Shown here: positions 36,620 to 54,733 of the stretch, one piece after another
Numbering within the stretch: the stretch's first letter is position 1
How the letters are laid out: each line of letters begins with the position of its first letter
Assembly (NCBI GenBank): GCA_038229495.1
Contig: JBBROJ010000004.1
Coordinates: forward strand, 9,320-73,319
Origin: Chthonomonadales bacterium
Lineage (GTDB): Bacteria > Armatimonadota > Chthonomonadetes > Chthonomonadales > CAJBBX01
Length of the DNA: 64,000 nt
Reading direction: 5' to 3'
Position numbers and translations under genes: made by a program
The notes under the pieces: generated by a model
Database searches by the model: none
What the model saw: only the letters and a program-made list of their open reading frames with translations
What the model was told of the DNA's origin: nothing

Positions 36620-36624
36620 GGAGT

Positions 36625-38097: not shown

Positions 38098-38100
38098 GAA

Positions 38101-38292
38101 GGTCGTTGGGTCGTTGGCCCCCCGGCCCGCAATTCTGGGGGAGATGCCCCCCGGCCCCCAATTCTGGGGGAGATGCCCCCCGGCCCCCAATTCTGGGGGA
38201 GACGGCATCGGTCGTTGGGTCGTTGGGTCGTTGGGTCGTTGGGTCGTTGGGTGGGGGCGGCTTCCGGCTTCCGACTTCCGGCTTCCGACTTC
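38101..38292. repeat. Composite array: (GGTCGTTG)x2 - 3 x 29-nt G/C hairpin unit - (GGTCGTTG)x5 - (CTTCCGN)x5
   Basis: 29-nt units ccccccggcccSSaattctgggggagaYg at 38118-38146, 38147-38175 and 38176-38204, each containing ccccca-attc-tggggg. Confidence 0.92.
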
Positions 38293-38307
38293 TTATGAGG
38301 TTGCTGC

Positions 38308-38748
38308 GTGAAACGATTCAAGTTCCGTTTTGAAGCCGTGCTGAAGCATCGCGCGGTCATCGAAGAGCTGCGAATGCATGAGTACGTTCGCATACAGGAC
38401 GAGCTTGCCATTTGCGAGGCCCGTCTTGCCGGCTGCCGTGACCAATATGCCCGGACAATCGCGGAGCGGCCCGCAAAGATCGACTTTGAGGACATTCCCC
38501 GGCGCGAGCGCTACCTGGACGTTCTCAATGCAAGAATCGCCCAGGAAGAGCGGCTCCGCGAGGGAATTGCGGCGAGGCTCGATGACGCGCGAACGGCCCT
38601 GATCGCGGCGCGCCAGGCGCGCGAGGCGCTGAAGCGAATACGCGAGGCGGACCAGGCGGAGCACCTGAGACTCGCGCTGCTGGCCGAACAGAATGCGCTC
38701 GACGAGATGTCCTCGCAGCGCTATCGAAGGGCGCAAGCAGCGCGGTAA
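38308..38748 (+). CDS. fliJ: Flagellar export chaperone FliJ
   Basis: GTG start. MKRFKFRFEAVLKHR..., coiled-coil of 146 aa, positioned after fliI. Confidence 0.85.
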   Translation: MKRFKFRFEAVLKHRAVIEELRMHEYVRIQDELAICEARLAGCRDQYARTIAERPAKIDFEDIPRRERYLDVLNARIAQEERLREGIAARLDDARTALIAARQAREALKRIREADQAEHLRLALLAEQNALDEMSSQRYRRAQAAR

Positions 38749-38750
38749 CA

Positions 38751-38911
38751 GTCAATGAGTGTTGAGTGTTGAGTGCTGGGTGCTGAGTACGCAGCAGCCT
38801 CCGTGTTGCGCCGTTCCCATTGACCCAACGACCCAACGACCCAACGACCCATTGACCCATTGACCCATTGACCCATTGACCCATTGACCCATTGACCCAT
38901 TGACCCAACGA
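38751..38911. repeat. TGAGTGY array, reverse copy of the 26-nt motif, then 12 x 8-bp CCCAWYGA units
   Basis: gtcaatgagtgttgagtgttgagtgctgggtgctgag. Motif at 38787-38812 (minus strand). (cccattga/cccaacga)x12 at 38816-38911, ending 7 nt before the ATG. Confidence 0.9.
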
Positions 38912-38918
38912 GGGAAAC

Positions 38919-39536
38919 ATGAGCATCGAAGCCATCAATGCGCGAATATCGGAGATACAGGCCCGGATTGACGCTCTAGCCATAAGGCCGGAGCCGCAGG
39001 CCGCGCCGATCACGCCAACCGGGCCTCAATTGCCTGCTGGCGCGCAAAAGCCGGCAACTGTCGAGCCGTTCAACGTGACATTCGAGCAGGCGCAGGGGCG
39101 CGCGATTCTGCGGCCCACTTCCGCGACTGGCGCATCTGCCGGGGAGAAGTTCTCGCCATACGTTGAGGGCCTCATCTCCAAGTACAGCGGGCTGAACAGC
39201 CTCGATCCGAATCTCGTCCGCGCAGTCATAACGGCTGAATCCGATGGAGACGTAAATTGCCGCTCGACCAAAGGGGCGATGGGACTCATGCAGCTTATGC
39301 CGGATGAGGTAGCGGGCTACGGAATCAAGAACCCGTTCGACGCGGAAGAGAGCATTAAGGGCGGCACGCGCCAACTCGCGGAGAAGCTGAAACTCTTTAA
39401 TGGCGACGTGACCAAGGCTCTGGCCGCCTACAATGCGGGCAGCGGCGCGGTGCGAAAGTACAACGGTGTTCCGCCCTATCATGAGACTCAGCACTACGTT
39501 AAGAAGATTCTCGCCATGGTCGGGCAGTCACGGTAA
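38919..39536 (+). CDS. Lytic transglycosylase (SLT domain), flagellar-cluster associated
   Basis: AESDGDVNCRSTKGAMGLMQLMP (catalytic Glu context) and AYNAGSGAV. Confidence 0.85.
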   Translation: MSIEAINARISEIQARIDALAIRPEPQAAPITPTGPQLPAGAQKPATVEPFNVTFEQAQGRAILRPTSATGASAGEKFSPYVEGLISKYSGLNSLDPNLVRAVITAESDGDVNCRSTKGAMGLMQLMPDEVAGYGIKNPFDAEESIKGGTRQLAEKLKLFNGDVTKALAAYNAGSGAVRKYNGVPPYHETQHYVKKILAMVGQSR

Positions 39537-39589
39537 GCCCAAGTCACCCAGGATTCAGCCACAAATCCTGTAGGTAAAAGCAGTCAACT

Positions 39590-40090
39590 ATGAAACGCTT
39601 GCTATTCATCGTTATCCCGCTTCTCCTTGTCGGGGGGACCGTCTACGGCATGATGTTATCCGGCATTCCGCCGTTCAAGAAGGACACCGGGAAGAAATCG
39701 AAGGCGCATGCTGCACCTGCCACCGAGCAGAAGACGACCGCGTCGTCGTCAGCGCCGGCCAATGGAGGTGCCGGGTCCTCGACGGTTCCACCCGTTCCGC
39801 CCGTTCGCCGCTCGACTCCGCCTCCCAGGCCGCAGGCCGCAGATGCGAATACGGTGGAGATGACCGAGGCGCGAATCGCCCGTCTCTCGACCGTCTACGA
39901 GCAGATGCCCGCGGAAGAGGCGGGCCGAATCTTTGCGAAGCTGCCGGACCCGCTGGTCGAGGAGCTTCTACGCCGCATGGATGAGAGACAGGTTGGCAAG
40001 TTGTTGCTTGCGCTCGATGTTGGGCGCGCCGCGCGCCTGACGCAGTCCCTGGCTATGCAGCCCCTGGCTAAGCCGCCCCTGGCTAAGTAG
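39590..40090 (+). CDS. MgtE-N-like flagellar protein (FlbB/MotE-like)
   Basis: N-terminal TM helix, Pro-rich linker, and C-terminal MPAEEAGRIFAKLPDPLVEELLRRMDERQVGKLL. Confidence 0.6.
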   Translation: MKRLLFIVIPLLLVGGTVYGMMLSGIPPFKKDTGKKSKAHAAPATEQKTTASSSAPANGGAGSSTVPPVPPVRRSTPPPRPQAADANTVEMTEARIARLSTVYEQMPAEEAGRIFAKLPDPLVEELLRRMDERQVGKLLLALDVGRAARLTQSLAMQPLAKPPLAK

Positions 40091-40151
40091 CGCGGGCTGC
40101 ATCAGGCGCTCCCTTCCACATTTGGCCCGTAGTTTCCCCAAAACAATTACC

Positions 40152-40179
40152 TGAAGAACGCTCAATAACCGCCCGATAA
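40152..40179 (+). promoter_or_regulatory. Candidate sigma-28-type promoter upstream of fliK
   Basis: TGAA-N17-CCGATAATTC, 52 nt upstream of the fliK start. Confidence 0.4.
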
Positions 40180-40230
40180 TTCACACAGCAGTTAGTACAG
40201 GTAAATTTAGCAGGAAGGAGGTAGACCAAG

Positions 40231-42729
40231 TTGGTGAATCCCACAGTACCTGCCGTTTCCCAGGCAAGCGCTAGCACAGGCGCCCTCGAACAGACGTCCG
40301 CGACTTCCGCTCCCGGCGACATTTCCGATGGAAGTCCCTTCGCAAATGTTCTTGCTCACACCGTGGTTTCGAATAGTACTACCGGAAAGGGCCGTCCCGC
40401 CGCGCGGGGATCGAAGCCAGATCCGAGCGGCTCACCGGCCACCGCGGACGAGAGTGCGGAAGCCGATATGCCCCCGCAAGAAGGCGTACCCTCCGCCAAT
40501 TCGGCGGTCTCAGCTATGCTAAGTGCCGTATTCGCCGGAATCAATCCCGGGCCCCAGGGCCTCGACGTTGTGACGTCAACGAAGGCCTCGGGCTCTTCAT
40601 CCGTCAAGCCGGCATCCTGCACCACGGCACCTGGAGGTACGGAGAAGCAACACGCGCAGCCACTTGTGAAGTTATTCACGCAGCCGATCACTCCCATCAC
40701 TCCCATCACTCCCATCACTCCCATCACTCCCATCACTCCCATCACTCCCATGACTCCCATCACTCCCATCACTCCCATCACTCCCATCACTCCCATGACT
40801 CCCATGACTACCATGATTACCATGACTACCGTGGCAGCCTCAACCGATAACGCGCAATTGGTGGACGCCGTAACTACGACTACGACTACAACCGGGCACA
40901 GCAAGGTCGTAACCGGCGAGCTAAAAGCGCAGACACCGATTCCTCAAACCGGTTCCTATGGGCCCCACGACTTAGATGCAGCAAATGCTGTAACAGCCAT
41001 GTCTGTCTCGGTTCATACCGCGCCAATTAAGCCTTTGCCGGAGATCGCCACAGCGCAGTCGCTTCTTACGCAGACTGCTGGAGTCGAATTTCCGCAGGCA
41101 GGCGCAACCAATAGCGTGACAGGAGAGGTTACAGCGCCGGGAACTTCGATTCCGACACAAAATGAGTCCAAGTCGCAAGCTGCGTCTATCGCGCAGGCAA
41201 CGCCCGTTATGCAGGCAACGCCCAGTGTGCAAGTTGCGCCCAGTATACAGGCTGCGATTATCGCGCAGGCAACGCCCAGTAAGCAGGCTGCGACTATCGC
41301 GCAGGCAACGCCCATTATGCAGGCAACGCCCGTTATGCAGTCATTGCCTGCCACGTATGCCGCGCCCGGTATGGAGGTCGTCTCGAGCATACAGGTCTCT
41401 CCCGGCGTACAGGCAGCATCGGTCGCGGCGCAGGGTTCGCCGCTCACCGCGGACGCGGGAATCAAAGGCATAACAGGCATAACAGCCATTGCAGGCATAA
41501 GCAGGAAGCCGGCGCCGGCGAACGTTACCGCCCCGGACGGACGTACCGGACAGTCAGCGGCTAAAGCCGCAATCTCTCCAGTCTCTCCGATCTCACGTGA
41601 AGCTGATATGCGCCCGGCGAGCCTACCCACCGTGGATCCAGGCGCTCCGTCGAATTCACGTTCACAGCCGATTCCCGCTGGGGCAATTCAGCCGCAGGAA
41701 AAATTGACGCGAACTCTGTTGACGAGTGCGCCGCAGCCCGACAATTCCCAGCCATCGGAGCACACCGCTTTGGGTGTCGCCGCGCCCAAGTCGGCTGTGC
41801 TCGCGACAACAGCGCCGGCCGCTCAACTCGGCGCGCCGGCCCTCATGGCGTCCGAAGCGGCAAACCCGGTTGACCCGCGCCAGGCGCAGACGACTGGACA
41901 AGGGATCAACCCCAATTTGCGGCAAATTCCCGCCGGCGCCCCGGCCATCTCGACCGCGCCCGCCGGCAATCAGACATCCCTGTCGGCTGCCCTGCTTTCG
42001 GCAGCCGTTCCACCGGACAACAGCCGGCCCCTCGACCGAAACTTCGCGATGGAGCGAACGACAATGACGTCGCTCGGAAGCACGGCAATGGCTGCGTCCA
42101 CCATAGGCCAGGCGGCTTTGGGAGAAGAGCAGAGCGCGGCTGATAAAGAGCGCCGCTCTTCCCCCGGACCGGATACCTCCGATCCGAAGCTTGGGCAGAC
42201 GGCGACCACCGGCAGCGCGACCGCCGAGTTCTCTCTCAAGGCCGCCCGAATTGAGGCAGCCGCGCAGCCGCCGCCGCACGACCGAATGCACGTCGTGGAG
42301 CAGGTCATGCAAAAAATGGAGACTTTGCGGCTCTCGCATGGCCACCAGGAGGTGACCGTCCATTTGCGACCCGATCACCTGGGGGACCTTCGTCTTACGA
42401 TCGTCGCCGACGGCCATAACGTCACGGCCACGATCGTGGCGGAGACTGCCGCCGCGAGTGAAGCAGTGAGAGAGGGCCATGAGCAGCTTCGCTCCGCGCT
42501 GGAACAGAAAGGTTACTCGCTTCAGGGGCTCGACGTCTCACTCGACGCCTCATTCAGTAACAGCGGTGGTGAACAGAAGTTCCTGCCCTTTGAGCAGAAT
42601 CAGCAGCCGTCCGGGCCAATGCGATCCTACGCCTCGCCCGACAACTTGGAGCCCGCTATTCACTTGCCTTTGGAAACGCGCTCCATGGTTGTATCGCGGG
42701 GAGCCGGAAGGCTGGACTATCAGGCATGA
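40231..42729 (+). CDS. fliK: Flagellar hook-length control protein FliK (unusually long, repeat-rich)
   Basis: 832 aa. C-terminal Flg_hook domain (VHLRPDHLGDLRLTIVADGHNVTATIVAE). Disordered Pro/Thr/Ala/Gln-rich N-terminal two thirds. TTG/GTG start. Confidence 0.85.
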   Translation: MVNPTVPAVSQASASTGALEQTSATSAPGDISDGSPFANVLAHTVVSNSTTGKGRPAARGSKPDPSGSPATADESAEADMPPQEGVPSANSAVSAMLSAVFAGINPGPQGLDVVTSTKASGSSSVKPASCTTAPGGTEKQHAQPLVKLFTQPITPITPITPITPITPITPITPMTPITPITPITPITPMTPMTTMITMTTVAASTDNAQLVDAVTTTTTTTGHSKVVTGELKAQTPIPQTGSYGPHDLDAANAVTAMSVSVHTAPIKPLPEIATAQSLLTQTAGVEFPQAGATNSVTGEVTAPGTSIPTQNESKSQAASIAQATPVMQATPSVQVAPSIQAAIIAQATPSKQAATIAQATPIMQATPVMQSLPATYAAPGMEVVSSIQVSPGVQAASVAAQGSPLTADAGIKGITGITAIAGISRKPAPANVTAPDGRTGQSAAKAAISPVSPISREADMRPASLPTVDPGAPSNSRSQPIPAGAIQPQEKLTRTLLTSAPQPDNSQPSEHTALGVAAPKSAVLATTAPAAQLGAPALMASEAANPVDPRQAQTTGQGINPNLRQIPAGAPAISTAPAGNQTSLSAALLSAAVPPDNSRPLDRNFAMERTTMTSLGSTAMAASTIGQAALGEEQSAADKERRSSPGPDTSDPKLGQTATTGSATAEFSLKAARIEAAAQPPPHDRMHVVEQVMQKMETLRLSHGHQEVTVHLRPDHLGDLRLTIVADGHNVTATIVAETAAASEAVREGHEQLRSALEQKGYSLQGLDVSLDASFSNSGGEQKFLPFEQNQQPSGPMRSYASPDNLEPAIHLPLETRSMVVSRGAGRLDYQA
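40687..40830 (+). repeat. In-frame 9-bp microsatellite (atcactccc)n inside fliK
   Basis: 16 consecutive units encoding ITPx7-MTP-ITPx4-MTP-MTT-MIT-MTT. Confidence 0.95.
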
Positions 42730-42783
42730 CGCCTGCTCGCCCAGTCGCACACGATTAAGAATAAGTTCAGAAAGGAATCAAAA

Positions 42784-43191
42784 ATGAGCACGCCACCTAT
42801 TGACAGCTCGACCGGCTCGGGGTCCATTTCGCAAGCTCTCGCCGGTAACCGCAAGTTGGGCCAGGATGAGTTCCTAAAGCTCCTCGTGACACAGCTCACG
42901 AACCAGGATCCCCTTGCGCCGCAGGACGACAAGCAGTTTCTCGCGCAGATGGCGCAGTTCTCGACCCTGGAAGGCGTCAACAATCTCGATACTTCCCTGA
43001 ATCGCGCGCAGGCCGCAGGCTTCATCAGCAAGACAGTGGACGCGCAGGTCCTGGAAGCGGGAAAGACGACGACTGTAACCGGAGTCGTGAAGGCCGTTAC
43101 ATATCAGAGCGACGGAGTGCACCTGCTGCTCAATAGCAAGAATGGCGACCGGGACGTTCAACTCACGCAGCTCACGCAAGTAAGGGCTTAG
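42784..43191 (+). CDS. flgD: Flagellar hook capping/assembly protein FlgD
   Basis: LGQDEFLKLLVTQLTNQDPLAPQDDKQFLAQMAQFSTLEG. Confidence 0.93.
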   Translation: MSTPPIDSSTGSGSISQALAGNRKLGQDEFLKLLVTQLTNQDPLAPQDDKQFLAQMAQFSTLEGVNNLDTSLNRAQAAGFISKTVDAQVLEAGKTTTVTGVVKAVTYQSDGVHLLLNSKNGDRDVQLTQLTQVRA

Positions 43192-43200
43192 GAGAATCCC

Positions 43201-43602
43201 ATGGCCGAACCGTTCCGAATCAATGAGCTGCTCATCGCGCCACAAGGACCGCAGCTTTTACCGGCGGCGGGAAGACCCGGGCAGGCAGCCCCCGGCGCGC
43301 CAAGCTTTGCCGACCTTCTCAAGAAGGCCCAATCGCCCGCGGATACCGGCGCGCTCCGGTTCTCCGCGCACGCGCAGACTCGCATTCAATCCCGCCAGAT
43401 TCAGATGGGCGCGGCGGAGATGCAGCGAGTAGAAGCGGCCGTGCAGAAGGCCGCAGGAAAGGGCGCTCGCGAGTCGCTCGTTCTTCTCGACCAGACGGCC
43501 CTTGTGGTGAGCGTGCCCAACCGCACGGTTATCACGGTGGTGGATAAGGACAGTCTCAAACAGAACGTCTTCACCAATATCGACAGCGCGGTGATCGCCT
43601 AG
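43201..43602 (+). CDS. Flagellar operon protein of unknown function (TIGR02530-like, between flgD and flgE)
   Basis: 133 aa. ...FSAHAQTRIQSRQI...VVSVPNRTVITVVDK. Same position as in Firmicute and Thermotoga clusters. Confidence 0.6.
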   Translation: MAEPFRINELLIAPQGPQLLPAAGRPGQAAPGAPSFADLLKKAQSPADTGALRFSAHAQTRIQSRQIQMGAAEMQRVEAAVQKAAGKGARESLVLLDQTALVVSVPNRTVITVVDKDSLKQNVFTNIDSAVIA

Positions 43603-43677
43603 AAGACGGAAGACGGAAGACGGAAGGTAGAAGGTAGAAGCCAACGACCCAACGACCCAACGACCCAACGACCCAAT
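43602..43677. repeat. (GAAGACG)x3-(GTAGAAG)x2 followed by (CCAACGAC)x4
   Basis: Same GGAAG -> CAACGA neighbour order as at 36625 and in the lon-upstream array. Confidence 0.9.
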
Positions 43678-43812
43678 GTCTCACTACAACCAGGCTGGAC
43701 CGACGTTTGACGGCGCGCCATTTGGCCGCTCCAGACGGGGAAGCCTGAGTCCCTGATCGATTGACGGGACGCACAATCTACTTTGGCAGAACGCCAAACG
43801 GAGGTCAAAACC

Positions 43813-45552
43813 ATGCTTCAAGCAATGTTTGCCGGTGTTAGCGGGCTTCAGGCTCATCAGAACAAGATTAACACGATCGGCAACAATATAGCCAACGTCA
43901 ATACCGTTGGATTCAAGAGCCAGCGCGTATCGTTTCAGGACCAGCTTTCCCAGACCCTCCACGGCGCGACGGCGCCAAAGTCCGGGGCATCGGGAGGTCA
44001 AAATCCCACGCAGGTCGGTCTTGGCGTGACCCTGGGATCCATCGACACCATCCAGACGCAGGGCAACCTTCAAACGACCGGCAAGTCTACGGATATGGCG
44101 GTGCAGGGCAACGGATTCTTCGTGGTGACCAGCGGAAAGTCGGTCCAATATACTCGTGACGGAACTTTCGATCTGGACAGCTCGGGGACGCTTGTGAATC
44201 CGGCCAGCGGCGTTAAGCTGCTTGGTTACCAGGCGGACAAGTTTGGCATAGTCGATAACTCCGCACCGGTCACCGCAAGCAGCACCATACAGATTCCTCT
44301 TGGCTCGCTAACGGACGCGAAGCAGACCGCCGCGATGACCACCACGGGGAACCTGGACGCGGGGGCGGCCCTCTATTCCTCCAAAGTAGACTATTCCGGG
44401 AATCTGGACTCGGCTGCTGTTGCCGGCGCGCAGGTGCAGTCGAACTCGACGGTCTTCGATAACCTTGGTAATCCGCATATCGTTCAGACCACGTTCACCA
44501 ACCCGGTGAACGCTCCGGTCGGCCCTAGCGTCCCGGCGGGCGCAACCCGCGCATGGGATGTTTCCGTAAGGGTCGACGGAGCCACCATCTACGACAGCAC
44601 GGCGGGAAAATCCAAGATGTACAGGGTGGGCGCGGCCTGGCAGTTCGCCGATACGACGACCGGAGCGGCGCTCGGGTCCAAAATCTCGCTGGACGGCGCG
44701 GTCGGATCCAATCATGCCGCGCAGGTGGCAGGCGCAAGCGGAGCGGCCAATGTTTCCATTGATCTGAACTATGCCCCCGTCACCGGCAACGCGGCGGCGT
44801 CTACGCTTCAGGGAGCGGCAGACGGCCAGACGGGAAGCAGCCCGTCCTGGGGAACCTCTATCCAGCTCTACGACAGCCTGGGAGTGGGCCATCTGGTCAA
44901 CTTCAAATATACCCACGTGCAGCTCGGAGCGGGCGCCCCCGGCGGGGCTACGGGCCGCTGGGACTGGTCGGCCACTGAAAACGGCAAGCCGGTAGGCGAC
45001 TCGACTCAGGCAGGCAATTCGCCGCTATACTTCGGCGGCACAGGCACGCTGGTGAGCGGTGCGATCCAAAACATTTCCGTTACGCCCAACGATGGTTCCG
45101 TTTCCCCGTTCGCCATCAAAGTCAATAATGAAAAAATGACTCAACTCGCCAGCGACGCGAACGCTTCAGCCGATTCGCAGGACGGTTACCCCGTGGGAAC
45201 TCTCCAGAGCTTCTCAATCTCGAGCGACGGCATAGTCACGGGAATCTTTTCCAGCGGCCAGTCTCGCGCCTTGGGACAGATAGCCATGGCGACGTTCACG
45301 AACCCCGGCGGCTTGCAGAGGGCCGGCGGGAACATGCTCAACAATACCGACAATTCGGGATCAGCGAGTATAGGCATCCCAGGGCAGGGCGGGCGAGGAA
45401 AAATCAACCCCGGCTTCCTGGAGATGTCCAACGTGGACTTGGCAACAGAGTTCACGAACCTGATCGTTACGGAGCGCGGCTTCCAGGCGAATACGAAAAT
45501 CGTTTCGACTATCGACAGCCTGCTTCAGGACGTACTGAATCTCAAGAGATAA
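43813..45552 (+). CDS. flgE: Flagellar hook protein FlgE
   Basis: ATG 43813 after GGAGG. MLQAMFAGVSGLQAHQNKINTIGNNIANVNTVGFK, and C-terminal TERGFQANTKIVSTIDSLLQDVLNLKR. Confidence 0.95.
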   Translation: MLQAMFAGVSGLQAHQNKINTIGNNIANVNTVGFKSQRVSFQDQLSQTLHGATAPKSGASGGQNPTQVGLGVTLGSIDTIQTQGNLQTTGKSTDMAVQGNGFFVVTSGKSVQYTRDGTFDLDSSGTLVNPASGVKLLGYQADKFGIVDNSAPVTASSTIQIPLGSLTDAKQTAAMTTTGNLDAGAALYSSKVDYSGNLDSAAVAGAQVQSNSTVFDNLGNPHIVQTTFTNPVNAPVGPSVPAGATRAWDVSVRVDGATIYDSTAGKSKMYRVGAAWQFADTTTGAALGSKISLDGAVGSNHAAQVAGASGAANVSIDLNYAPVTGNAAASTLQGAADGQTGSSPSWGTSIQLYDSLGVGHLVNFKYTHVQLGAGAPGGATGRWDWSATENGKPVGDSTQAGNSPLYFGGTGTLVSGAIQNISVTPNDGSVSPFAIKVNNEKMTQLASDANASADSQDGYPVGTLQSFSISSDGIVTGIFSSGQSRALGQIAMATFTNPGGLQRAGGNMLNNTDNSGSASIGIPGQGGRGKINPGFLEMSNVDLATEFTNLIVTERGFQANTKIVSTIDSLLQDVLNLKR

Positions 45553-45573
45553 TAATCAGGGACCAGAGATAAT

Positions 45574-45634
45574 AGTCAGGGATCAGGAGTCAGCTAACGG
45601 CAATGCCGATGTCCCTGACTCCTGATCCCTGACT
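45574..45634. repeat. Perfect 20-bp hairpin (AGTCAGGGATCAGG family) in the flgE-fliL spacer
   Basis: agtcagggatcaggagtcag (45574-45593) is the exact reverse complement of 45615-45634, with a 21-nt loop. Further degenerate units flank both arms. Confidence 0.92.
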
Positions 45635-45656
45635 CCCAGCTCCCAGGAATAAACAT

Positions 45657-46151
45657 ATGGCAGAGAAACAGTCGGCGCCGGAAAAGCCGGTCGAGGACAA
45701 GCCGGTCAAGGAAAAGAAGCGCCGAGTGCCGATACTCCCGATTATCGCGATCGTGGTAGTGCTCAATGTGCTTCTGGTTGGAAAGATCTATATGGGTAGA
45801 GTTGCAAAGAAGAGCCCCGCTGAGTCGTCCAAGATTAAGAAGGAGGAGCCCGTCGGCGTGAAGGTGCCGCTCGAAGAGTTCCTGGTCAATCTCGCCGGCA
45901 GCAGCGAACACTACCTGAAGGCGACATTCGCGATCGGCCTGCGCAAGGGCGAGACGGAAGAGTCGATAAAGGAAGAGGTCGCCCCGATTCGCGATGCAAT
46001 ACTCAGCGTGCTCACCTCAAAGCAGGCGGACGAGCTGGCAACGGAATCCGGCAAAGAGAAGCTCAAGAAAGACATGGTCGGCAAGATCAACAAGGAGATA
46101 GGCGGCGAGAAGGTCCTCAAAGTCTACTTCATGTCCTTCGCAACCCAGTAG
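45657..46151 (+). CDS. fliL: Flagellar basal body-associated protein FliL
   Basis: Lys-rich N-terminus, one TM helix, FLVNLAGSSEHYLKATFAI...KVYFMSFATQ. Confidence 0.9.
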   Translation: MAEKQSAPEKPVEDKPVKEKKRRVPILPIIAIVVVLNVLLVGKIYMGRVAKKSPAESSKIKKEEPVGVKVPLEEFLVNLAGSSEHYLKATFAIGLRKGETEESIKEEVAPIRDAILSVLTSKQADELATESGKEKLKKDMVGKINKEIGGEKVLKVYFMSFATQ

Positions 46152-46181
46152 AAGCAGCAGTAAACACATGTGAGGCTTGAT

Positions 46182-46294
46182 GGGAAGAACGGAAGAAGGG
46201 AAGAAGGGAGGAAGGGAGGCTCGAGTGGCAGCCATCCCGTTCTCCCTTCTCCCCTTCTCCCGTTCTCCCGTTCTCCCGTTCTCCCGTTCTCCCC
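46182..46294. repeat. GGGAAGAA array plus an inverted (CCGTTCTC) x about 6 array, forming a hairpin downstream of fliL
   Basis: gggaagaacggaagaagggaagaagggaggaagggagg ... cccgttctcccttctccccttctcccgttctcccgttctcccgttctcccgttctcccc. Confidence 0.9.
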
Positions 46295-46328
46295 GCCGAC
46301 CTCTTCCATGTTTCCCGCAAAAACTCCC

Positions 46329-46356
46329 TAACTATTTTCCCCACGTTCTCCGATAA
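46329..46356 (+). promoter_or_regulatory. Candidate sigma-28-type promoter upstream of fliM
   Basis: TAAC-N17-CCGATAATTC, 223 nt upstream of the fliM GTG, just after the hairpin array. Confidence 0.4.
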
Positions 46357-46578
46357 TTCAACCGAGGCTGCTTCCGCTTAGCAACCGGCGCGAGCGCGAT
46401 GGCATTGCCGATCCGCGCGATGAGATGCGCGGCCTCACAGTGATCGTTTGAAACCAGGCAGCCGCTTGAGCTGCCGCGCGCGGGTGGAAGGCAAGGCTGG
46501 AATCGGTCAGGAAGGCGGGCTGCCTCACGCCCCGACTCCTTTCTTCTCACAGTCTCCTCCCGTCTGCTCCATCGGAGG

Positions 46579-47655
46579 GTGAAGTTGGTCGAGATTCTTT
46601 CTCAGGCCGAGATTGAGGCGCTCCTCGCGTCGCTGACAAGCGATGGTGATTCCGTCGATCCCGAGCCAGACAGCAGCATTAGCGAGCCCGTACAGTTTAC
46701 GAGGGGGGGAGGCGCGCCCGCATCCGCGCTTGCCCTGTCCTCTCCCACCCGCCCGGATGCGCGCCGCACAATCGCCTACGAGCCCTACGATTTTCGCAGG
46801 CCGGACAAGTTCTCCAAGGATCAGCTGCGCACATTGCAGATGCTCCATGAGACTTTCGCCCGGCTGTTCGCCTCATCCCTGTCCGCCTACCTCCGAGTCT
46901 CCACTCATGTCGATCTCGTAAGCGTCGAGCAGGTTCCCTACAACGAGTACATGCGCTCCCTGACAACGTCGATTATCAACGTTTTCAGCCTCGGGCCGCT
47001 CGAAGGCCAGGCCATCCTGGAGATGGAATTTAACGTCGTCCTCGCCATGATCGATCGTCTTCTGGGCGGGCCAGGCAACATGGTAAAGACCAACACTATG
47101 TTGACGGAAATTGAAAAGGCTCTCACGGAATCCATTATCAATCGCGCCCTCAGGGACCTTCAGACAGCATGGGTCAGCGTGGTCGCTTTTACTGCGAAGC
47201 GCGAAAGCATGGAGACTCAATCGCAATTCATACAGATCGTCCCGCCGAACGATACCATCGTGTCGATTCTGTTCGAGGTAAAGGTTGGCGATCTGCGTGG
47301 CGCGATGAGCCTGTGCATACCCTATCTTCTGCTGAAGCCCATCACTCCAAAGCTTTCGGTACAGCGCTGGTTCTCCTCCACCGCCGGCGAGAACGCGGGC
47401 CAGAATTCGGAACAGCTCGCGAAGCGCCTTTCAAAAGCGAAGGTGACCTGTGTCTGCCGCCTCGGCACTTCGCGAATCACGGTCCGTGAGTTGGTAAATC
47501 TTAGTGCGGGCGACACGGTCCTGCTGGATCGGCGCAATACCGACGAGGTGGACCTGATGATTGGCAACAGCGTAAAGTTTCGCGGCAAGCCCGGCACCGC
47601 GGGCCGCAAAGTCGCGCTCCACATCAACCGTATTGCAGGCGACGACCGCGCCTAA
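46579..47655 (+). CDS. fliM: Flagellar motor switch protein FliM
   Basis: GTG start. N-terminal CheY-P binding motif ILSQAEIEALL. FliM middle domain and C-terminal SpoA-like domain. Confidence 0.93.
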   Translation: MKLVEILSQAEIEALLASLTSDGDSVDPEPDSSISEPVQFTRGGGAPASALALSSPTRPDARRTIAYEPYDFRRPDKFSKDQLRTLQMLHETFARLFASSLSAYLRVSTHVDLVSVEQVPYNEYMRSLTTSIINVFSLGPLEGQAILEMEFNVVLAMIDRLLGGPGNMVKTNTMLTEIEKALTESIINRALRDLQTAWVSVVAFTAKRESMETQSQFIQIVPPNDTIVSILFEVKVGDLRGAMSLCIPYLLLKPITPKLSVQRWFSSTAGENAGQNSEQLAKRLSKAKVTCVCRLGTSRITVRELVNLSAGDTVLLDRRNTDEVDLMIGNSVKFRGKPGTAGRKVALHINRIAGDDRA

Positions 47656-47735
47656 GCGAACCAGGGGTTGAAACCTGTGGCTGTTAGTGCAAAGTCGGCC
47701 TGCGCCGACCCCAGACGAAGCTATAGATTTGCAAG

Positions 47736-47788
47736 TCCTAAATCCTAAATCCCGACCTGAGATCTGAAACCTGAAACCTGAAACCTGA
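47736..47788. repeat. (TCCTAAA)x2 and (CTGAAAC)x3 tandem units in the fliM-fliY spacer
   Basis: tcctaaatcctaaatccc ... ctgaaacctgaaacctgaaacctga, then AAGGAG and the ATG. Confidence 0.85.
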
Positions 47789-47803
47789 CTCAAGGAGCCT
47801 CTC

Positions 47804-48820
47804 ATGTCTGAACTATCCAGCGCCCGGCTTACAGCATTCCAAACGGTAATCGAACCCCTTGCCGAGGCGTTTGCGATGTCGCTCTCGGAGAATATCAACC
47901 AGCTCGCCGTGTTCGATCCGCCTGTCATTACGCAGGAATCGATCAGCGCGCTGATCTCCGATCCGGAGCCGGTAATCCAGACCTCGTTCACCTTCCCGAC
48001 ACTCTGCGAGGATGAGGCGGCCGTTCTATTCTCGGAGTCCGATTCGCATATCCTGGCAGATATTATCGGAATGGGCGACGGAAGCGAGCCCCCCGAGATG
48101 CTGGAAGAGGAGCACATCGAGCGGCTGAGCGCTGCAATGGCCGGATTCGTTCAGGGCATCGGCACGGCAATCGGCAACGTCCTTAGCCAGCCGGTTGCGC
48201 CCGGGCCCGGCTGCTCGACAAAACTGGTCCCAATGACTCTCTCCGCCGGGTTTCTCACAGCGGGCTACGCCGTCCAAATCGCGTTCCCATATCGCGTCGA
48301 AGGGTTGATTGACGGCACTTTCCGGATTCTGGTCACACCGGATACGGCGCGCGCAATAACTCCCGGCGTCGAAGAAGAGTTGCCCGGCGAGCAGAACGAT
48401 ATTCAGGCGATCAATGCGGCAGAGGTTCCCCCCGCGCAGGCGGGCGCCGCGCCCGGGATATCGATGGCCGGCGCGACCCCGGCGTCCGACTTCGGCACGC
48501 ATTCGTTCCAGCCCTTCGAGGTCCTCGGCGGTGTTCAGGATGCCATGCCTCGCGGCATGGACATCATCATGGACATTCCTCTCGATGTCTCCGTAGAGCT
48601 TGGGCGCGTCCAGATGCTTATCAAGGACGTGCTGGAACTGGCCACAGGCTCCATCGTAGAGCTTGAGCGCGTGGCGGGCGAGCCTATCGATCTGATGGTG
48701 AACGGGCAGCTCATCGCCAAAGGCGAGGTAGTCGTTATCGAAGACAACTTCGGCATCCGCATCACCGAAATCGTCAGCCCCTCCGACCGCCTGAACACCG
48801 CCGGCAAGCGCGCCGCGTAG
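47804..48820 (+). CDS. fliY: Flagellar motor switch protein FliN with a long N-terminal extension (FliY-like)
   Basis: C-terminal SpoA/FliN domain (IPLDVSVELGRVQMLIKDVLELATGSIVELERVAGEPIDLMVNGQLIAKGEVVVIEDNFGIRITEI). About 240 aa of N-terminal extension, possibly CheC-like. Confidence 0.85.
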   Translation: MSELSSARLTAFQTVIEPLAEAFAMSLSENINQLAVFDPPVITQESISALISDPEPVIQTSFTFPTLCEDEAAVLFSESDSHILADIIGMGDGSEPPEMLEEEHIERLSAAMAGFVQGIGTAIGNVLSQPVAPGPGCSTKLVPMTLSAGFLTAGYAVQIAFPYRVEGLIDGTFRILVTPDTARAITPGVEEELPGEQNDIQAINAAEVPPAQAGAAPGISMAGATPASDFGTHSFQPFEVLGGVQDAMPRGMDIIMDIPLDVSVELGRVQMLIKDVLELATGSIVELERVAGEPIDLMVNGQLIAKGEVVVIEDNFGIRITEIVSPSDRLNTAGKRAA

Positions 48821-48833
48821 GTTGTCGATCAAT

Positions 48834-48900
48834 GGGGTCAATGGGTCAATGGGTCAATGGGTGCCCGTTTATTTACTCATTTACAAATTGACTGGTTTAC
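48834..48900. repeat. (GGTCAATG)x3 plus degenerate inverted units in the fliY-fliO spacer
   Basis: ggggtcaatgggtcaatgggtcaatgggtg ... tttactcatttacaaattgactggtttac. Confidence 0.8.
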
Positions 48901-48944
48901 GCATCTGAAGTAAGCAAGAGGTCAGACGTTACAGGAGGCCCGAA

Positions 48945-50069
48945 ATGAGAAGCAAATGGAAGGCAGCAATCGGATCTACAATCGTCTTAGCAATGTCGGG
49001 CGCGGCGCTCGGCCAGGCTGCCTCAGTCGAGAAGGCTGGAAAGCAGCTTCCAATCAAATTCAGCATCGCCGGCCGGATAACCGATGAGCGCGTGAATGTT
49101 CGGCAGGGACCCGGAAGCGATTACAAGCGCGCGACGCTCGTCGACAAGGATACGCGCGTCGTCATCACAGCTCGCGAGGGTGATTGGCTGCAAGTCTCGC
49201 TTCCCGACGGAACGGCGGGATGGGTCGGAGCGAGATTCACGGAATCCCAAAAAGCCCTGCCGAAAGCCGCGGTTCCCAAGGTCATCCGTATCGCCTCGGT
49301 CGCTCCGGCCGCCGTAAATACAGTTCCGCCGATAAAGCCCGCGCCAGTGGCCCTCAAGCCTGCCGCTCCCGCTGTTCATCCGGCCTCTGGCACCCCCACC
49401 GTGTCCAAGACAGCCGCGCCGACTCCGGGCAGGAAGGCGGCGGATGTCGAGAAGGATGTCATGGGAGCGCTAGTGGGCACGAAGCCCGACCTCCTCAGCA
49501 GCGCGAGGCAGAGTCCCGCCACCACGCTCGCCGATTCATTCCGAATGGTTGTCGTTTTGCTGCCGGTCCTTGCTCTTATCGTGCTCGCCGTGCGCGGCCT
49601 GAAGGGCCTTCAGCAGCGCACGGGCAGGATCCCGGACTTCCGCAAGGGCCTTCGCAGCGGCATTCTGGGCGGCTTCAATCTATCCAACGCCCGCAGGAGC
49701 GGCGGCAGCTCAATTCGCGTCATCGAATCCGTCCCTATCGGCTCCGCGGGTCTCCATCTCGTGGAGGTGCGCGGACGCGTCCTGCTCCTTGGAGCAACCG
49801 GCAGCTCGATATCAACATTGGCCGAGCTGAGCGAAACGCAGCCCGCCTATGCAGAGGGTGGCGATTCCGATTTCCGTTCGCTGCTCAACAATATGTCCGA
49901 CGATCTGCATGAGGACTACTCCGACATTCAGGGGGGGCTCGGCAGGGTTGTCGGCTCGCTCGAAGATCAGATACGTGAAGCGCGGGAATCCATCGCGCAG
50001 AGCGCCGTTCGCAGCAGCACGTCGCGTTGGAAGGAATCGGACGATGAAGAAACTTCCTACAATCACTAA
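48945..50069 (+). CDS. fliO: FliO-like protein with an N-terminal signal peptide and an SH3b domain
   Basis: Signal peptide. SH3b-like region RVNVRQGPGSDYKRATLVDKDTRVVITAREGDWLQVSLPDGTAGWVGARF. Pro/Ala linker. FliO core (TM helix VVVLLPVLALIVLAV plus IRVIESVPIGSAGLHLVEVRGRVLLLGATGSSIS). Confidence 0.7.
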   Translation: MRSKWKAAIGSTIVLAMSGAALGQAASVEKAGKQLPIKFSIAGRITDERVNVRQGPGSDYKRATLVDKDTRVVITAREGDWLQVSLPDGTAGWVGARFTESQKALPKAAVPKVIRIASVAPAAVNTVPPIKPAPVALKPAAPAVHPASGTPTVSKTAAPTPGRKAADVEKDVMGALVGTKPDLLSSARQSPATTLADSFRMVVVLLPVLALIVLAVRGLKGLQQRTGRIPDFRKGLRSGILGGFNLSNARRSGGSSIRVIESVPIGSAGLHLVEVRGRVLLLGATGSSISTLAELSETQPAYAEGGDSDFRSLLNNMSDDLHEDYSDIQGGLGRVVGSLEDQIREARESIAQSAVRSSTSRWKESDDEETSYNH

Positions 50070-50961
50070 ACAGATCGATGAGGCGATGAGGCGCGGTAAC
50101 GATAAGGCGAAACGGCGGCTTTCCCCTCATCCCCTCATCTCCTCATCGCCTCATCCGTTCTTTACTACCCGTCTCATCCACACGCTTACCGGCAGGAAGG
50201 CTCTGTTGTGCCTGGTCGGCCTGCTGCTAGTGATAGGAATCTGCGGTGGAGTCGCGGCGCAGGGCGGCGGAGGGCTGGTGGGCGTGCCGAAGATCTCGCT
50301 CGGCATGGAGGCGTCCAAGAATCCGAAGGACGTTGCGGTGACGCTGCAAGTGCTCCTGCTGATGACCGTCCTTACGCTCGCGCCGTCGCTGCTCATTATG
50401 ACGACCGCGTTTACGCGAATCATAATCGTGCTCTCGATTCTGCGCAGCGCGCTCGGTCTGCCCCAGATTCCCCCGAATCAGGTACTCGTAGGTCTCGCGC
50501 TCTTCATGACCTTCTTCGTTATGCGGCCAACCTTCGAGAAAGTCAATGATGACGCTTTGCAGCCCTACTTCAGCAACAAGATCACGTTTCAGCAGGGTAT
50601 CGACAGGGCGGCCAGCCCGCTCCATTCGTTCATGATTCACCAGACATACCGCAAGGATCTCGCCTTCTTCCTCGGAATGGCAAAGCTGAAGCAGGCCCCG
50701 AAGAACGAGCAGCAGATTCCTTTCACGGTCGTAGTGCCGGCCTTCATAACGAGTGAGTTGAAGACCGCCTTCATCATGGGTTTCTACATCTATCTGCCGT
50801 TCCTGATTATCGACATCGTCGTGGCCTCCACGCTCATGAGCATGGGCATGATGATGCTCCCGCCAACCATTATCGCGCTGCCGGCAAAGCTGCTTCTCTT
50901 CGTGATGGCGGACGGATGGACCCTTCTCCTGGGCTCGCTCGCGAAAGGATTCCGCCCGTAA
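50044..50961 (+). CDS. fliP: Flagellar export apparatus protein FliP
   Basis: Conserved core LLLMTVLTLAPSLLIMTTAFTRIIIVLSILRSALG...PAFITSELKTAF. The start is uncertain (ATG 50044 or 50089). The N-terminus includes a CCTCATC-type repeat at about 50118-50160. Confidence 0.88.
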   Translation: MKKLPTITKQIDEAMRRGNDKAKRRLSPHPLISSSPHPFFTTRLIHTLTGRKALLCLVGLLLVIGICGGVAAQGGGGLVGVPKISLGMEASKNPKDVAVTLQVLLLMTVLTLAPSLLIMTTAFTRIIIVLSILRSALGLPQIPPNQVLVGLALFMTFFVMRPTFEKVNDDALQPYFSNKITFQQGIDRAASPLHSFMIHQTYRKDLAFFLGMAKLKQAPKNEQQIPFTVVVPAFITSELKTAFIMGFYIYLPFLIIDIVVASTLMSMGMMMLPPTIIALPAKLLLFVMADGWTLLLGSLAKGFRP

Positions 50962-51230
50962 TGTCGCAGCAAGAGGTCCTCACAATCGGGCGCACGTGCC
51001 TCATGGTGACGCTCCAGCTTGCGCTGCCCATCCTTCTTTTCGGGCTGGTGGCGGGCGTGCTCGTGAGCATCTTCCAGGCGGTTACGCAGATTCAGGAGTT
51101 CACGCTCACGTTCATTCCGAAGCTGCTTGCCGTCCTGCTCGCCCTGGCGATATTCGGCCCCTGGATGCTCGCCACCATGGTGAACTTCATCGTCACCATC
51201 TTCAACCATATGCCCACCGTAACGCAGTAG
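50961..51230 (+). CDS. fliQ: Flagellar export apparatus protein FliQ
   Basis: ATG 50961 overlaps the fliP stop (TAATG). 89 aa, two TM helices, ILLFGLVAGVLVSIFQAVTQIQE. Confidence 0.92.
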   Translation: MSQQEVLTIGRTCLMVTLQLALPILLFGLVAGVLVSIFQAVTQIQEFTLTFIPKLLAVLLALAIFGPWMLATMVNFIVTIFNHMPTVTQ

Positions 51231-51300
51231 GGATTAGGGACGAGGATTGAGGGATGCGAACATCTCTCCTTTCCTCATCCCTCATCCCACATCCCTAATC
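51228..51300. repeat. GGGATKAGG array plus an inverted CCTCATCCC array (hairpin) in the fliQ-fliR spacer
   Basis: tagggattagggacgaggattgagggatg ... cctttcctcatccctcatcccacatccctaatc. Confidence 0.85.
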
Positions 51301-51303
51301 TCT

Positions 51304-52074
51304 ATGTCCATCGGCGTACACGAATTCTGGTCCTGCGTACTCATCTTCGCCAGGGTGGCCGCGCTCTTCACGACCGCGCCCATCTTTGGGAATCGCGCGA
51401 TTCCCAAGCAGGTGAAGGTCGGTCTCGCGGCGCTCATTACGCTTGCGCTGCTGCCGCTCGTCGGTCCAAAGGTCGGCGCCGCGCCCGTTGACCTGGTTTC
51501 GATGGCCGGGCAGGTAGCGGCGGAGACGGCGGTCGGCCTCTGCCTCGGATTCATGGTTCAGCTTCTGCTCTCCGCATTCCAGATGGCCGGCTACTACATC
51601 GATACGCAGATGGGATTCGGTATCATCAACATCCTGAACCCGTTCACGGAGCAGCAGACCTCCGCCATGGGCCAGTTCATGTACCAGCTCGGCATGACCC
51701 TCTTCCTTGTCGGCGGCGGCCATCTATTCCTCATCAGCACCGTCGCGGGCAGCTATCTCACCGTGGCGCCCGGCGGAGCGCACTTTAACGGCGACATGTC
51801 CGGCGCGTTCACCGGATTCCTGGGACAGCTTTTCATTGTGGCCATCAAGATCGCCGCGCCTGCCGCCGCGGTGCTGCTGGTCGTGGACGTAGCGTTTGGA
51901 ATCATCGCGCGGACGGTGCCGCAGATGAACGTTTTCATCGTCGGCATGCCCGTCAAGATCATCGTCGGAGTCCTGACCCTGGCGCTGGTTCTGCCTGTAG
52001 TCGCCCTCGTCGTAACTCAAATTCCAACCTTCATTGCGAGCGGCGCGCAAACTTTGCTCCAGGCTGCACGTTAG
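51304..52074 (+). CDS. fliR: Flagellar export apparatus protein FliR
   Basis: ATG 51304 (MSIGVHEF...). IFARVAALFTTAPIFG, 6-7 TM helices. Confidence 0.92.
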   Translation: MSIGVHEFWSCVLIFARVAALFTTAPIFGNRAIPKQVKVGLAALITLALLPLVGPKVGAAPVDLVSMAGQVAAETAVGLCLGFMVQLLLSAFQMAGYYIDTQMGFGIINILNPFTEQQTSAMGQFMYQLGMTLFLVGGGHLFLISTVAGSYLTVAPGGAHFNGDMSGAFTGFLGQLFIVAIKIAAPAAAVLLVVDVAFGIIARTVPQMNVFIVGMPVKIIVGVLTLALVLPVVALVVTQIPTFIASGAQTLLQAAR

Positions 52075-54730: not shown

Positions 54731-54733
54731 ATC

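Follow-up and report, generated by a model that had tools for sequence, protein, structure and literature searches.

Inverted pairs of heptamer and octamer arrays in the operon spacers of a Chthonomonadales bacterium

The 64,000-nt stretch considered in the present work (hereafter the window; GenBank assembly GCA_038229495.1, contig JBBROJ010000004.1, positions 9,320 to 73,319) belongs to a Chthonomonadales bacterium, a soil-type armatimonadote related to Chthonomonas, and harbors, in the spacers of its flagellar operon and of other tight operons, tandem arrays of 7- or 8-nt units, often followed, after a loop, by an inverted array of the same unit. Ten of these array hairpins were found in the window. 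They belong to a repeat class already known, that of the short tandemly repeated repetitive (STRR)-type arrays organized in inverted pairs, of which this lineage offers a specific and very dense example. According to the explanation we favor, to which we assign roughly even chances, they have a DNA-level origin in the gaps between stop codon and Shine-Dalgarno (SD) sequence of tight operons and are transcribed as non-terminating stem-loops, with probable effects like those of repetitive extragenic palindromic (REP) elements.

Structure and placement of the array hairpins

The hairpin between flgE and fliL had been singled out by an earlier, sequence-only reading of this DNA, whose description of it is exact: the two core arms (45574-45593, AGTCAGGGATCAGGAGTCAG, and 45615-45634) are 20 nt each, 100% complementary and separated by 21 nt, and the degenerate units said to lengthen both arms are present on either side of the core (AGAGATAATAATCAGGGACC / AGAGATAATAGTCAGGGATC upstream, two copies of TCCCTGACTCC downstream). 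Folded as RNA, the 104-nt spacer reaches -49.9 kcal/mol, against -24.6 +/- 3.4 kcal/mol for dinucleotide shuffles (z -7.5; none of 200 shuffles equal); an SD-like AGGA lies at -12 from ATG 45657.

The same reading had proposed that this architecture (tandem array, loop, inverted array) recurs between co-directional operon genes at eight further sites. The architecture holds and all eight sites are real; moreover, a tenth hairpin of the same design, missing from that list, is located between fliO and fliP. For each site, the fold energy of the spacer RNA was compared with that of 200 dinucleotide shuffles: the ten hairpins range from -33 to -70 kcal/mol, and no shuffle out of 200 was as stable at any site. 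Each of the eight further sites folds with z between -4.5 and -7.5, which is also the range of the whole set. Gene names were checked with Pfam, from which a curated gene map was built; they agree with those given before (confirmed products: ClpX, ClpP, trigger factor, FlgB/C, FliE/F/G, FlgE, FliL/M/N/O/P/Q/R, and FlhB). The ten hairpins are the following:

45556-45650, plus strand: flgE-fliL; 20-bp perfect core, units AGTCAGG/GATCAGG, 21-nt loop holding a small inner hairpin
7481-7553, minus strand: clpP-clpX; 31-nt arms, 87% complementary, perfect 16-bp core (7496-7538), mRNA-sense 5' arm GUUGUCAGUUGUCAGUGAUCAGUGGUCAGUC
8232-8305, minus strand: tig-clpP; units CAGTGGT / CGGTGAT and complement, 24-nt arms (8232-8301), 83% complementary
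21722-21877, plus strand: PPC-domain gene to GT1 glycosyltransferase gene; (GTGCTGA)3 ... (CAGCACY)4, 23-nt arms, 96-nt structured loop
32028-32102, plus strand: flgB-flgC; GAAGTAG/GGAAGCC/GGAAGAC units, then (CTTCCGR)n; inverted repeat at 32041-32102
32988-33077, plus strand: fliE-fliF; (GGAAGAC)5 ... (GRCTTCC)5, five 6-bp blocks with single mismatches between them, -57.7 kcal/mol
34786-34881, plus strand: fliF-fliG; octamers GGTATTCA/GGTGTTCG and complement, -51.7 kcal/mol
46179-46294, plus strand: after fliL; (GGGAAGAA)4.5 ... (TCCCGTTC)7.5, -70 kcal/mol, surplus unpaired copies in the 3' array
50072-50161, plus strand: fliO-fliP; (GATGAGGC)2 ... (CCTCATCN)4
51227-51305, plus strand: fliQ-fliR; TAGGGAT/TAGGGAC/GAGGGAT units and complement, no SD

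Each arm being a degenerate array in which a 7- or 8-nt unit is repeated in tandem, the stems are periodic, with blocks of 6-7 bp and one 1x1 mismatch per unit; the clearest case is that of fliE-fliF, with its five blocks. In all ten hairpins the base of the stem is placed at -3 to +3 nt relative to the stop codon of the upstream gene, and in several of them the stop is inside the first unit, as in flgB-flgC, where the SD AGGAGA follows the stem immediately on its 3' side. In eight hairpins out of ten, the distance from the end of the stem to the start codon that follows is -1 to 23 nt. Six out of ten have an SD-like motif immediately beyond the stem, at -9 to -12, so that an SD close downstream of the stem, as had been claimed for several sites, is indeed frequent; for the same reason the suggestion that the stems occlude translation initiation is unsupported at most sites, though two genes without any SD-like motif, the GT1 gene (ATG 21882) and fliR (ATG 51304), have their starts at the stem base. 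In detail, the PPC-GT1 hairpin begins within the stop codon and ends 4-12 nt ahead of the SD-less ATG, and the UAG stop of fliQ pairs with bases abutting the fliR AUG. The start of fliR is ATG 51304 and not TTG 51247, that of the longest open reading frame (ORF), the FliR of a relative (locus L081) aligning only from residue 17; this places the fliQ-fliR hairpin in intergenic DNA, through which the longest ORF would run. Array hairpins can therefore mislead longest-ORF gene calling.

Of the 36 co-directional spacers measuring 25 nt or more, about 21 contain arrays or array hairpins; none of the three divergent spacers and neither of the two convergent ones does, which bears out the claimed position between co-directional genes. 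The length of the spacers is bimodal: those without arrays measure about 55 nt at most, or the genes overlap, and those with arrays at least 73 nt. In the window fliG and fliH overlap by 8 nt; in a relative (L001) a 344-nt array hairpin lies between them. Most simply, the arrays would be additions to spacers in which stop codon and SD used to be neighbors, which would also account for the position of the stems right at the stop codon.

As regards termination, no T-rich tail was found in the 12 nt on the 3' side of each stem, and a consensus terminator scan of positions 31000-50999 flagged none of the array hairpins, with a total of 15 candidates against 18.7 in shuffled sequence. The ends of the transcription units carry instead ordinary GC-rich, short-loop, T-tailed hairpins, unlike the array hairpins:

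53207-53237: stem after flhB
25289-25390: convergent spacer, stem at about 25312-25361
3190-3249: spacer
27490-27575, minus strand: spacer
9603-9880, minus strand: spacer

Lacking a U tract, the stems would not act as classical terminators; intrinsic termination of the classical type is rejected on account of the missing U tract, the absence of scan matches and the separate design at operon ends, and the attenuation of read-through suggested earlier is, in this classical form, not borne out. Nor do the array hairpins belong to a curated RNA family, for the only match of Rfam 15 in the window at the gathering score is a tRNA. The gene of this tRNA (14293-14365, minus strand) is located in a divergent spacer upstream of an aldehyde dehydrogenase gene.

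Polarity and turnover among relatives

When read in the mRNA sense, a G-rich (often purine-rich) array comes first and a C-rich one second in 32 hairpins out of 32 (10 from the window and 22 from relatives). This polarity is kept by minus-strand genes (clp/tig, the M28 peptidase-DCC1 pair, and a minus-strand pair in the relative L089), and pairs of heterologous, non-complementary arrays show the same order. Where the orientation of the genes changes, as it does five times along the window, the polarity changes with it; it is thus tied to transcription or translation, and the replication strand is ruled out as its cause. An orientation filter acting on the arrays is plausible. C-rich, G-poor arrays would be unable to contain ATG, GTG, TTG or SD-like motifs and, for this reason, would do no harm immediately before a ribosome-binding site; an array rich in G looks like an SD and, in that position, would make spurious initiation sites.

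The distribution of the arrays was then assessed in other flagellar loci. Scanning for FliI with one genome per species retrieved, as the nearest sequence, that of an Armatimonadota metagenome-assembled genome (MAG) from the Chthonomonadaceae (L001, 72% identical), the remaining matches belonging to Firmicutes, Eremiobacterota and similar groups. A scan of metagenomes for FlgE yielded L081 and L082 (with a FliI 86% identical to that of the window) together with L083, and a search for FliL homologs yielded L085-L090 (50-63% identical). An inverted-repeat detector for tandem arms found 9 hairpins among 14 clusters in the window, 6 among 11 in L001 and approximately none in the other 78 flagellar loci. 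Arrays of period 7 or 8 with at least three copies occur at 3.3 per 10 kb in the window and at 2-8 per 10 kb in members of the clade, against 7 in 1,416 kb in 75 other flagellar loci, i.e., at an about 65-fold lower density there. Two Armatimonadota loci (L034 and L053) have none, so that the feature is specific to the clade and a phylum-wide character is ruled out. A hairpin of the same design was observed in a flagellar operon of an unrelated phylum, at 8394-8490 of a Selenomonadaceae MAG from reindeer (L079), with (GTAGTGA/GTAGTTA)n followed by (CTACTCC)n and z -5.6; the design is therefore not exclusive to the clade, occurring sporadically elsewhere.

The comparison of orthologous spacers, which the sequence-only reading had indicated as a check, revealed hairpins that are kept with a different sequence at flgE-fliL and fliE-fliF; unrelated as they are in sequence, orthologous hairpins do not lend themselves to alignment. 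The flgE-fliL spacer harbors an array hairpin in the window, L081, L083, L085, L086 and L087, built from at least four unrelated unit families:

flgE-fliL units: AGTCAGG/GATCAGG in the window; GGGTCGTY plus a nested core of about 95 nt in L081; TTAGGAK in L083; GAATTAGGAGCC in L085; GTTCTAG in L086 and L087
fliE-fliF units: GGAAGAC in the window; GTGTTGA in L081; GGGTGTC in L001

In the fliL-fliM spacer, the array hairpins of the window, L081, L085 and L086 are all made of related, purine-rich units of the GGGRAGAA type.

At the scale of strains, pairs from different samples with 99.9-99.99% identity were compared. L081 and L082 are 99.985% identical over 19.4 kb, with identical array copy numbers and a single 1-nt indel beside an array, and the alignment of L087 and L088 has no gaps. 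With copy numbers unchanged between near-identical strains, the arrays are not hypermutable over short times, and a contingency locus of this type is rejected. The sole other contig with an identical FliL (L084; Logan SRR19962015, 2185 nt) has the same sequence as the window and ends inside the (TCCCGTTC)n array after fliL, showing that the arrays break short-read assemblies.

Lastly, the two arms of a hairpin are kept alike at the DNA level. Two paralogous elements of L001 have 33-nt arms that are 100% identical and perfectly complementary, with loops only about 55-60% identical. In L081, a dispersed core of about 95 nt resembling a MITE (miniature inverted-repeat transposable element), with the terminal inverted repeat CTTGACGTCATTC...GAATGACGTCAAG, sits in the loops of (GGGTCGTY)n/(CRACGACC)n hairpins of three spacers (11738-11971, 15077-15326, and 17570-17778), whose arms vary in copy number. 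These data point to slippage, inverted duplication, conversion and mosaic dispersal as the processes that keep the arms alike. A further shared core, of about 40 nt (CGCTCACTGAAAGTTT...AAACTTTCAGCAAACGAGCG) and itself a small hairpin, is present in the loops of the flgB-flgC, fliE-fliF and fliF-fliG hairpins of L001 (4697-9019).

The wider array class and known repeat systems

Besides the inverted pairs, Tandem Repeats Finder (TRF) located period-7/8 arrays at about 35 places in the window, and a detector of our own 21 arrays of at least three copies. Nearly all the spacers between cistrons of the flagellar operon hold such arrays, several of which are not locally self-complementary. The arrays in this operon and in other spacers of the window include the following:

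5858-6036, minus strand: clpX-lon spacer; (GGAAGWC)5, then (YAACGAYC)11, then (CGAATACCTGAACACC)2 (mRNA sense), without self-complementarity
10741-10766, minus strand: unpaired (CTTCCGA)3.7 array (mRNA sense) in the spacer from a major facilitator superfamily (MFS) gene to the downstream hypothetical gene
32560-32586, plus strand: about three GTCAATNN units in the 31-nt flgC-fliE spacer
36630-36756, plus strand: fliH-fliI spacer, two heterologous arrays, (GGAAGWC)5 followed by (GAATACC/GAACACC)n, without self-complementarity; minimum free energy only -21 kcal/mol
38098-38307, plus strand: fliI-fliJ mosaic; (GGGTCGTT)2, a 29-nt REP-like unit three times (38117-38202), (GGGTCGTT)5, then (GCTTCCGR)5
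38756-38907, plus strand: spacer after fliJ; (GAGTGYT)4.7, then (CCCAACGA/CCCATTGA)11.5
43600-43676, plus strand: spacer before flgE; (GGAAGAC)3.6, (GAAGGTA)2.6, then (CCAACGAC)4.5
47736-47788, plus strand: fliM-fliN spacer; C-rich (TCCTAAA)2.4 and (ACCTGAA)4.9, immediately ahead of the SD
48829-48862, plus strand: fliN-fliO spacer; (GGGTCAAT)4 array
54593-54733, minus strand: M28 peptidase-DCC1 spacer, second copy of the mosaic; GGGTCGYT, the 29-nt unit twice (54660-54718), GGTCGATGGG, (CTTCCGR)n

Intergenic DNA accounts for 13% of the window, yet it contains most of the unit copies, which belong to at least 10 families. The proposal that each spacer uses a unit of its own stands for AGTCAGG/GATCAGG, which is local to flgE-fliL and unique within the window, and fails for others that recur between spacers: GGAAGNC is found in at least 10 (the flgB-flgC and fliE-fliF hairpins and no fewer than 8 spacers besides); for GGGTCRWT the number is at least 7, and for GGTRTTC it is 4. 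Runs of three Gs (G3 tracts) at 7-8-nt spacing characterize GGGTCGTT, GGGAAGAA and GGGTGTC, and occur also in TAGGGAT; AGTCAGG/GATCAGG, GGAAGAC, GTGCTGA, CAGTGGT, GGTATTCA and GATGAGG are without them. The CsrA-binding motif GGA is contained in only some of the families.

The mosaic [GGGTCGYT array][29-nt unit x2-3][GGTCGWTGGG][CTTCCGR array] is present in two copies (38098-38307, plus strand, and 54593-54733, minus strand), in the same orientation with respect to transcription. Its GC-rich 29-nt unit, CCCCCCGGCCCCCAATTCTGGGGGAGATG, is a small palindrome, repeated in tandem three times in the first copy and twice in the second and embedded in GGGTCGTT arrays of two operons; it behaves like a REP element. 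Complementary arrays also bracket single genes: (GGAAGWC)5 at 36630-36663 and (GRCTTCC)5 at 38258-38292 stand on either side of fliI, and (GGGTCGTT)5 at 38210-38252 and (CCCAACGA/CCCATTGA)n at 38816-38907 on either side of fliJ. They could pair over long distance in the mRNA, or could be due to chance, given the small vocabulary of units.

Other features of the window were also noted. The ORF of fliK, the gene for the hook-length control protein, contains in-frame coding tandem repeats (40687-40830 and 41175-41340, plus strand; a 9-nt period about 15 times and 18/36/54-nt periods 3-8 times). Two strong inverted repeats, both located in long spacers, are not made of tandem units (12336-12406, 23-nt arms, 96%, 25-nt loop; 29796-29947, 31-nt arms, 87%, 90-nt loop). 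The ORF at 23951-25288 (plus strand) encodes sigma-70 regions 2, 3 and 4 and, at the C-terminus, a GGDEF diguanylate-cyclase domain, an unusual fusion adjoining flagellar and PilZ genes. At the window edge, an IS110-family transposase gene (188-1237, minus strand) is followed by two tandem PilZ-domain genes (1808-3189, plus strand).

Tandem heptamers are the most over-represented among the longer simple-sequence repeats of many bacterial genomes, and the heptamer sequences of the cyanobacterial STRRs were reportedly given by Mazel et al. in 1990. What the sequence-only reading missed is that its hairpins are part of a genome- and lineage-wide repeat class with known counterparts, namely the cyanobacterial STRRs and the paired GGGAATC arrays of Xanthomonas. 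In cyanobacteria, 7-bp STRRs form hairpins between hupS and hupL, for which a role in transcript stability or translational coupling was proposed (PMC2670836). The dispersed repeat csR1.1 of Nostoc PCC 7120 is ttgtcagttgtcag / ttgtcagttgtcagttgtca (PMC2408588). Its heptamer, TTGTCAG, is identical to the unit of the 5' arm of the clpP-clpX hairpin (7523-7553, minus strand) and one base off a reverse-complement rotation of TAACTGA, a heptamer of Beggiatoaceae and cyanobacteria; the same heptamers thus recur across phyla. Like the STRRs, the arrays analyzed here consist of head-to-tail 7-8-nt units in at least 2-3 copies, comprise several families per genome, are dispersed over many intergenic loci (as seen in this one 64-kb window) and form hairpins inside co-transcribed gene pairs. 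Unlike them, they include 8-nt units as commonly as 7-nt ones, are far denser, filling most spacers of a 22-kb operon, and are paired as a rule, STRRs being mostly one-sided. The host, moreover, is an armatimonadote and not a heterocystous cyanobacterium, the nearest genome being the Chthonomonadaceae MAG; they are therefore filed as the same kind of element and not as the cyanobacterial family itself.

In Xanthomonas, according to Rehm et al. (2015), about 185 GGGAATC arrays are present per genome, 70-75 pairs of which are convergent; 89-93% are located in intergenic DNA, for the most part where both ORFs have the same orientation and a short way behind the upstream one (mean 28 nt), with the G-rich strand being the coding one downstream of an ORF or the non-coding one upstream of an ORF; the arrays at a given gene pair differ in length and sequence from one related species to another, and a regulatory role was not found (PMC4692102). 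The arrays of the window resemble them in several respects: a heptamer array has an inverted one nearby, with which it can form a stem-loop (10 cases in the window and 22 in relatives), the pair sits in intergenic DNA just behind an ORF and mostly ahead of another in the same orientation, and the G-rich polarity on the coding strand and the variation between species are the same. The differences reside in the at least 10 unit families, most without G3, compared with the single GGGAATC with its G-quadruplex potential; in how near the arrays stand to the upstream ORF (0-3 nt from the stop codon here, 28 nt on average in Xanthomonas); and in the mosaics with the 29-nt REP-like unit. The arrays of the window do not conform to a GGGAATC unit with at least four G3 tracts, only GGGTCGTT, GGGAAGAA and TAGGGAT carrying G3.

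REPs and bacterial interspersed mosaic elements (BIMEs) of enterobacteria and pseudomonads are extragenic palindromes within operons, organized in modular mosaics, biased in orientation and variable in location between strains; each genome has one conserved family of 20-40-nt palindromes, mobilized by a REP-associated tyrosine transposase (RAYT). Extragenic palindromes within operons, mosaics of few modules and an orientation bias are found here as well, but the hairpins are made of short tandem units whose sequence differs between sites. Only the 29-nt unit fits the single conserved palindrome; no RAYT-like or Y1 transposase gene was found in the 64-kb window, which carries an IS110-family one. 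In functional terms the closest analog is REP325, which stabilizes the upstream mRNA and is a partial Rho-dependent attenuator (bioRxiv 10.64898/2026.03.23.713779).

The TAACTGA direct heptamers of marine Beggiatoaceae, cyanobacteria and Bacteroidetes are intergenic, oriented with the downstream gene, and end just before start codons (MacGregor 2015, PMC4679880); they have a single unit, are predicted to be unstructured and include one inverted set out of 170 (PMC4679880). The arrays of the window share with them the intergenic tandem heptamers, which follow the orientation of the downstream gene and stop shortly before start codons, and, in the clpP-clpX hairpin, the related unit CAACTGA/TTGTCAG, but stand in inverted, hairpin-forming pairs in place of almost exclusively direct arrays. 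Two further classes were discarded: MITEs, because AGTCAGG/GATCAGG is unique in the window and no target-site duplication is evident, and CRISPR arrays, because the 7-8-nt units are contiguous and the 29-nt unit is in tandem without spacers.

Origin, maintenance and possible effects

According to the favored explanation, the arrays would originate and be replaced through DNA-level processes, namely slippage, inverted duplication and the spread of mosaics from a limited vocabulary of units, and DNA-level homogenization, not base-by-base selection on the RNA, would keep the two arms alike. A single orientation would be tolerated, with a G-rich, SD-like array after the stop codon and a C-rich array free of start codons before the next ribosome-binding site. 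This part of the explanation, which regards origin and maintenance (add-ons at the DNA level, homogenization, one tolerated orientation), is largely established by the data given above. Once transcribed in the polycistronic mRNA, the arrays would fold into very stable stem-loops without a U tract. By analogy with REP/BIME elements, their most likely effect would be that of a barrier to 3' exonucleases, stabilizing the upstream cistron, with at most a partial, factor-dependent attenuation at the stems; the stems might also hold the upstream stop codon beside the downstream start. Differential stability or processing of the mRNA, which the sequence-only reading had suggested, is plausible on the same analogy.

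Several points weigh against this explanation. If the helix were under selection at the RNA level, G-U pairs should exceed A-C mismatches, i.e., the G-U pairs of the antisense strand; over the 32 hairpins there are 88 G-U pairs in the sense folds and 117 in the antisense ones, and in only 11 out of 32 does the sense fold have the greater stability (Wilcoxon p 0.32). Without an excess on the sense strand there is no signature of selection on the RNA helix, and purifying selection of this type was thus sought and not found. Relatives lack a hairpin at several spacers, which implies that the hairpins are dispensable for the function of the operon, and the recurrence at orthologous positions could reflect a small number of permissive insertion sites. 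Furthermore, many arrays are unpaired or lie beside a non-complementary one, the spacer census includes only 5 spacers that are not co-directional, and every RNA-level effect of the stems is deduced from sequence.

The main rival is orientation-filtered selfish DNA without a selected function: slippage-prone repeats and mosaic or MITE-like elements would gather where they are harmless, the hairpin would be a by-product of inverted duplication or of insertion into palindromes, and no effect on expression would be worth selecting. We regard this as possible but somewhat doubtful. It agrees with the missing sense-strand G-U bias, with the unpaired and heterologous arrays, with the single mosaic dispersed to two operons, with the MITE-like core inside arrays at three L081 spacers, with the bimodal spacer length and the gene overlap of the window that corresponds to a hairpin in L001, and with the assembly that breaks inside an array (L084); a regulatory role was not found by Rehm et al. 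for the Xanthomonas arrays either (PMC4692102). It is at odds with a polarity so strict, in 32 hairpins out of 32 and on both strands, as to require at least a selective filter, and with arms that stay perfect while the loops diverge; moreover, a hairpin of -40 to -70 kcal/mol at 3 nt or less from a stop codon would hardly be inert for terminating ribosomes and exonucleases.

A second rival, which we consider unlikely, is a zipper for translational coupling, in which the hairpin closes the spacer and brings stop and start side by side at the stem base, and the terminating ribosome melts this base and re-initiates or frees the SD; translation of the downstream gene would then hinge on that of the upstream one, even with a spacer of 70-160 nt between them. 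The position of the stems, which start at the stop codon in 10/10 hairpins and end close to the next start in 8/10, the two SD-less starts at a stem base (GT1 and fliR) and the pairing of the fliQ UAG are what this idea predicts, and coupling was proposed for the cyanobacterial STRR hairpins too (PMC2670836). The geometry, however, is trivial if the arrays were inserted between an originally adjacent stop and SD; the start of fliM lies about 300 nt past the stem behind fliL, that of fliP, itself uncertain, some distance past the fliO-fliP stem, and the unpaired arrays do not fit. To our knowledge, such a zipper has no experimental support in any organism. In an extended and quite speculative form, it would be an evolvable device for SD-independent termination-reinitiation, with ribosomes crossing the helix and array slippage tuning the coupling, fliQ UAG/fliR AUG being the clearest case; complementary arrays in different spacers would then be an addressable pairing code, looping out single genes (fliI, fliJ) in the mRNA.

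That the stems are attenuators or terminators inside the operon, stopping or pausing RNA polymerase and producing steps of expression along it, appears improbable. Very stable hairpins directly after stop codons, the partial Rho-dependent attenuation by REP325 (bioRxiv 10.64898/2026.03.23.713779) and the resemblance to Rho loading sites of unpaired arrays that are rich in C, poor in G and up to 92 nt long (38816-38907) are in its favor; the stems have neither a U tract nor a short loop, the terminator scan flagged none of them and remained below the shuffle expectation, operon ends use a canonical and different design, and ten strong terminators in a flagellar export operon would abolish the distal essential genes fliP, fliQ, fliR and flhB. 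Very improbable, finally, is a DNA-structural or contingency element (G-quadruplex/i-motif, cruciform, or phase-variable repeats that switch expression by copy number), for, despite the G3 tracts at 7-8-nt spacing in GGGTCGTT, GGGAAGAA and GGGTGTC, the G-quadruplexes formed in vitro by Xanthomonas GGGAATC arrays (PMC4692102) and antisense-strand stems as stable as the sense ones, the AGTCAGG/GATCAGG unit of flgE-fliL and several others lack G3 tracts, the polarity follows transcription and not a fixed strand, copy numbers are identical in near-identical strains (L081/L082, L087/L088), and the flanking genes are housekeeping ones and not surface antigens.

The lineage described here offers a dense and clean natural data set, i.e., a 22-kb essential operon with a hairpin in most of its spacers, several unit families, a strict polarity and sequences replaced in relatives, which makes an exonuclease barrier, attenuation, coupling and filtered selfish DNA directly testable. 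The kind of element being already known, the main value of these arrays is that of a favorable system for finding what such repeats do.

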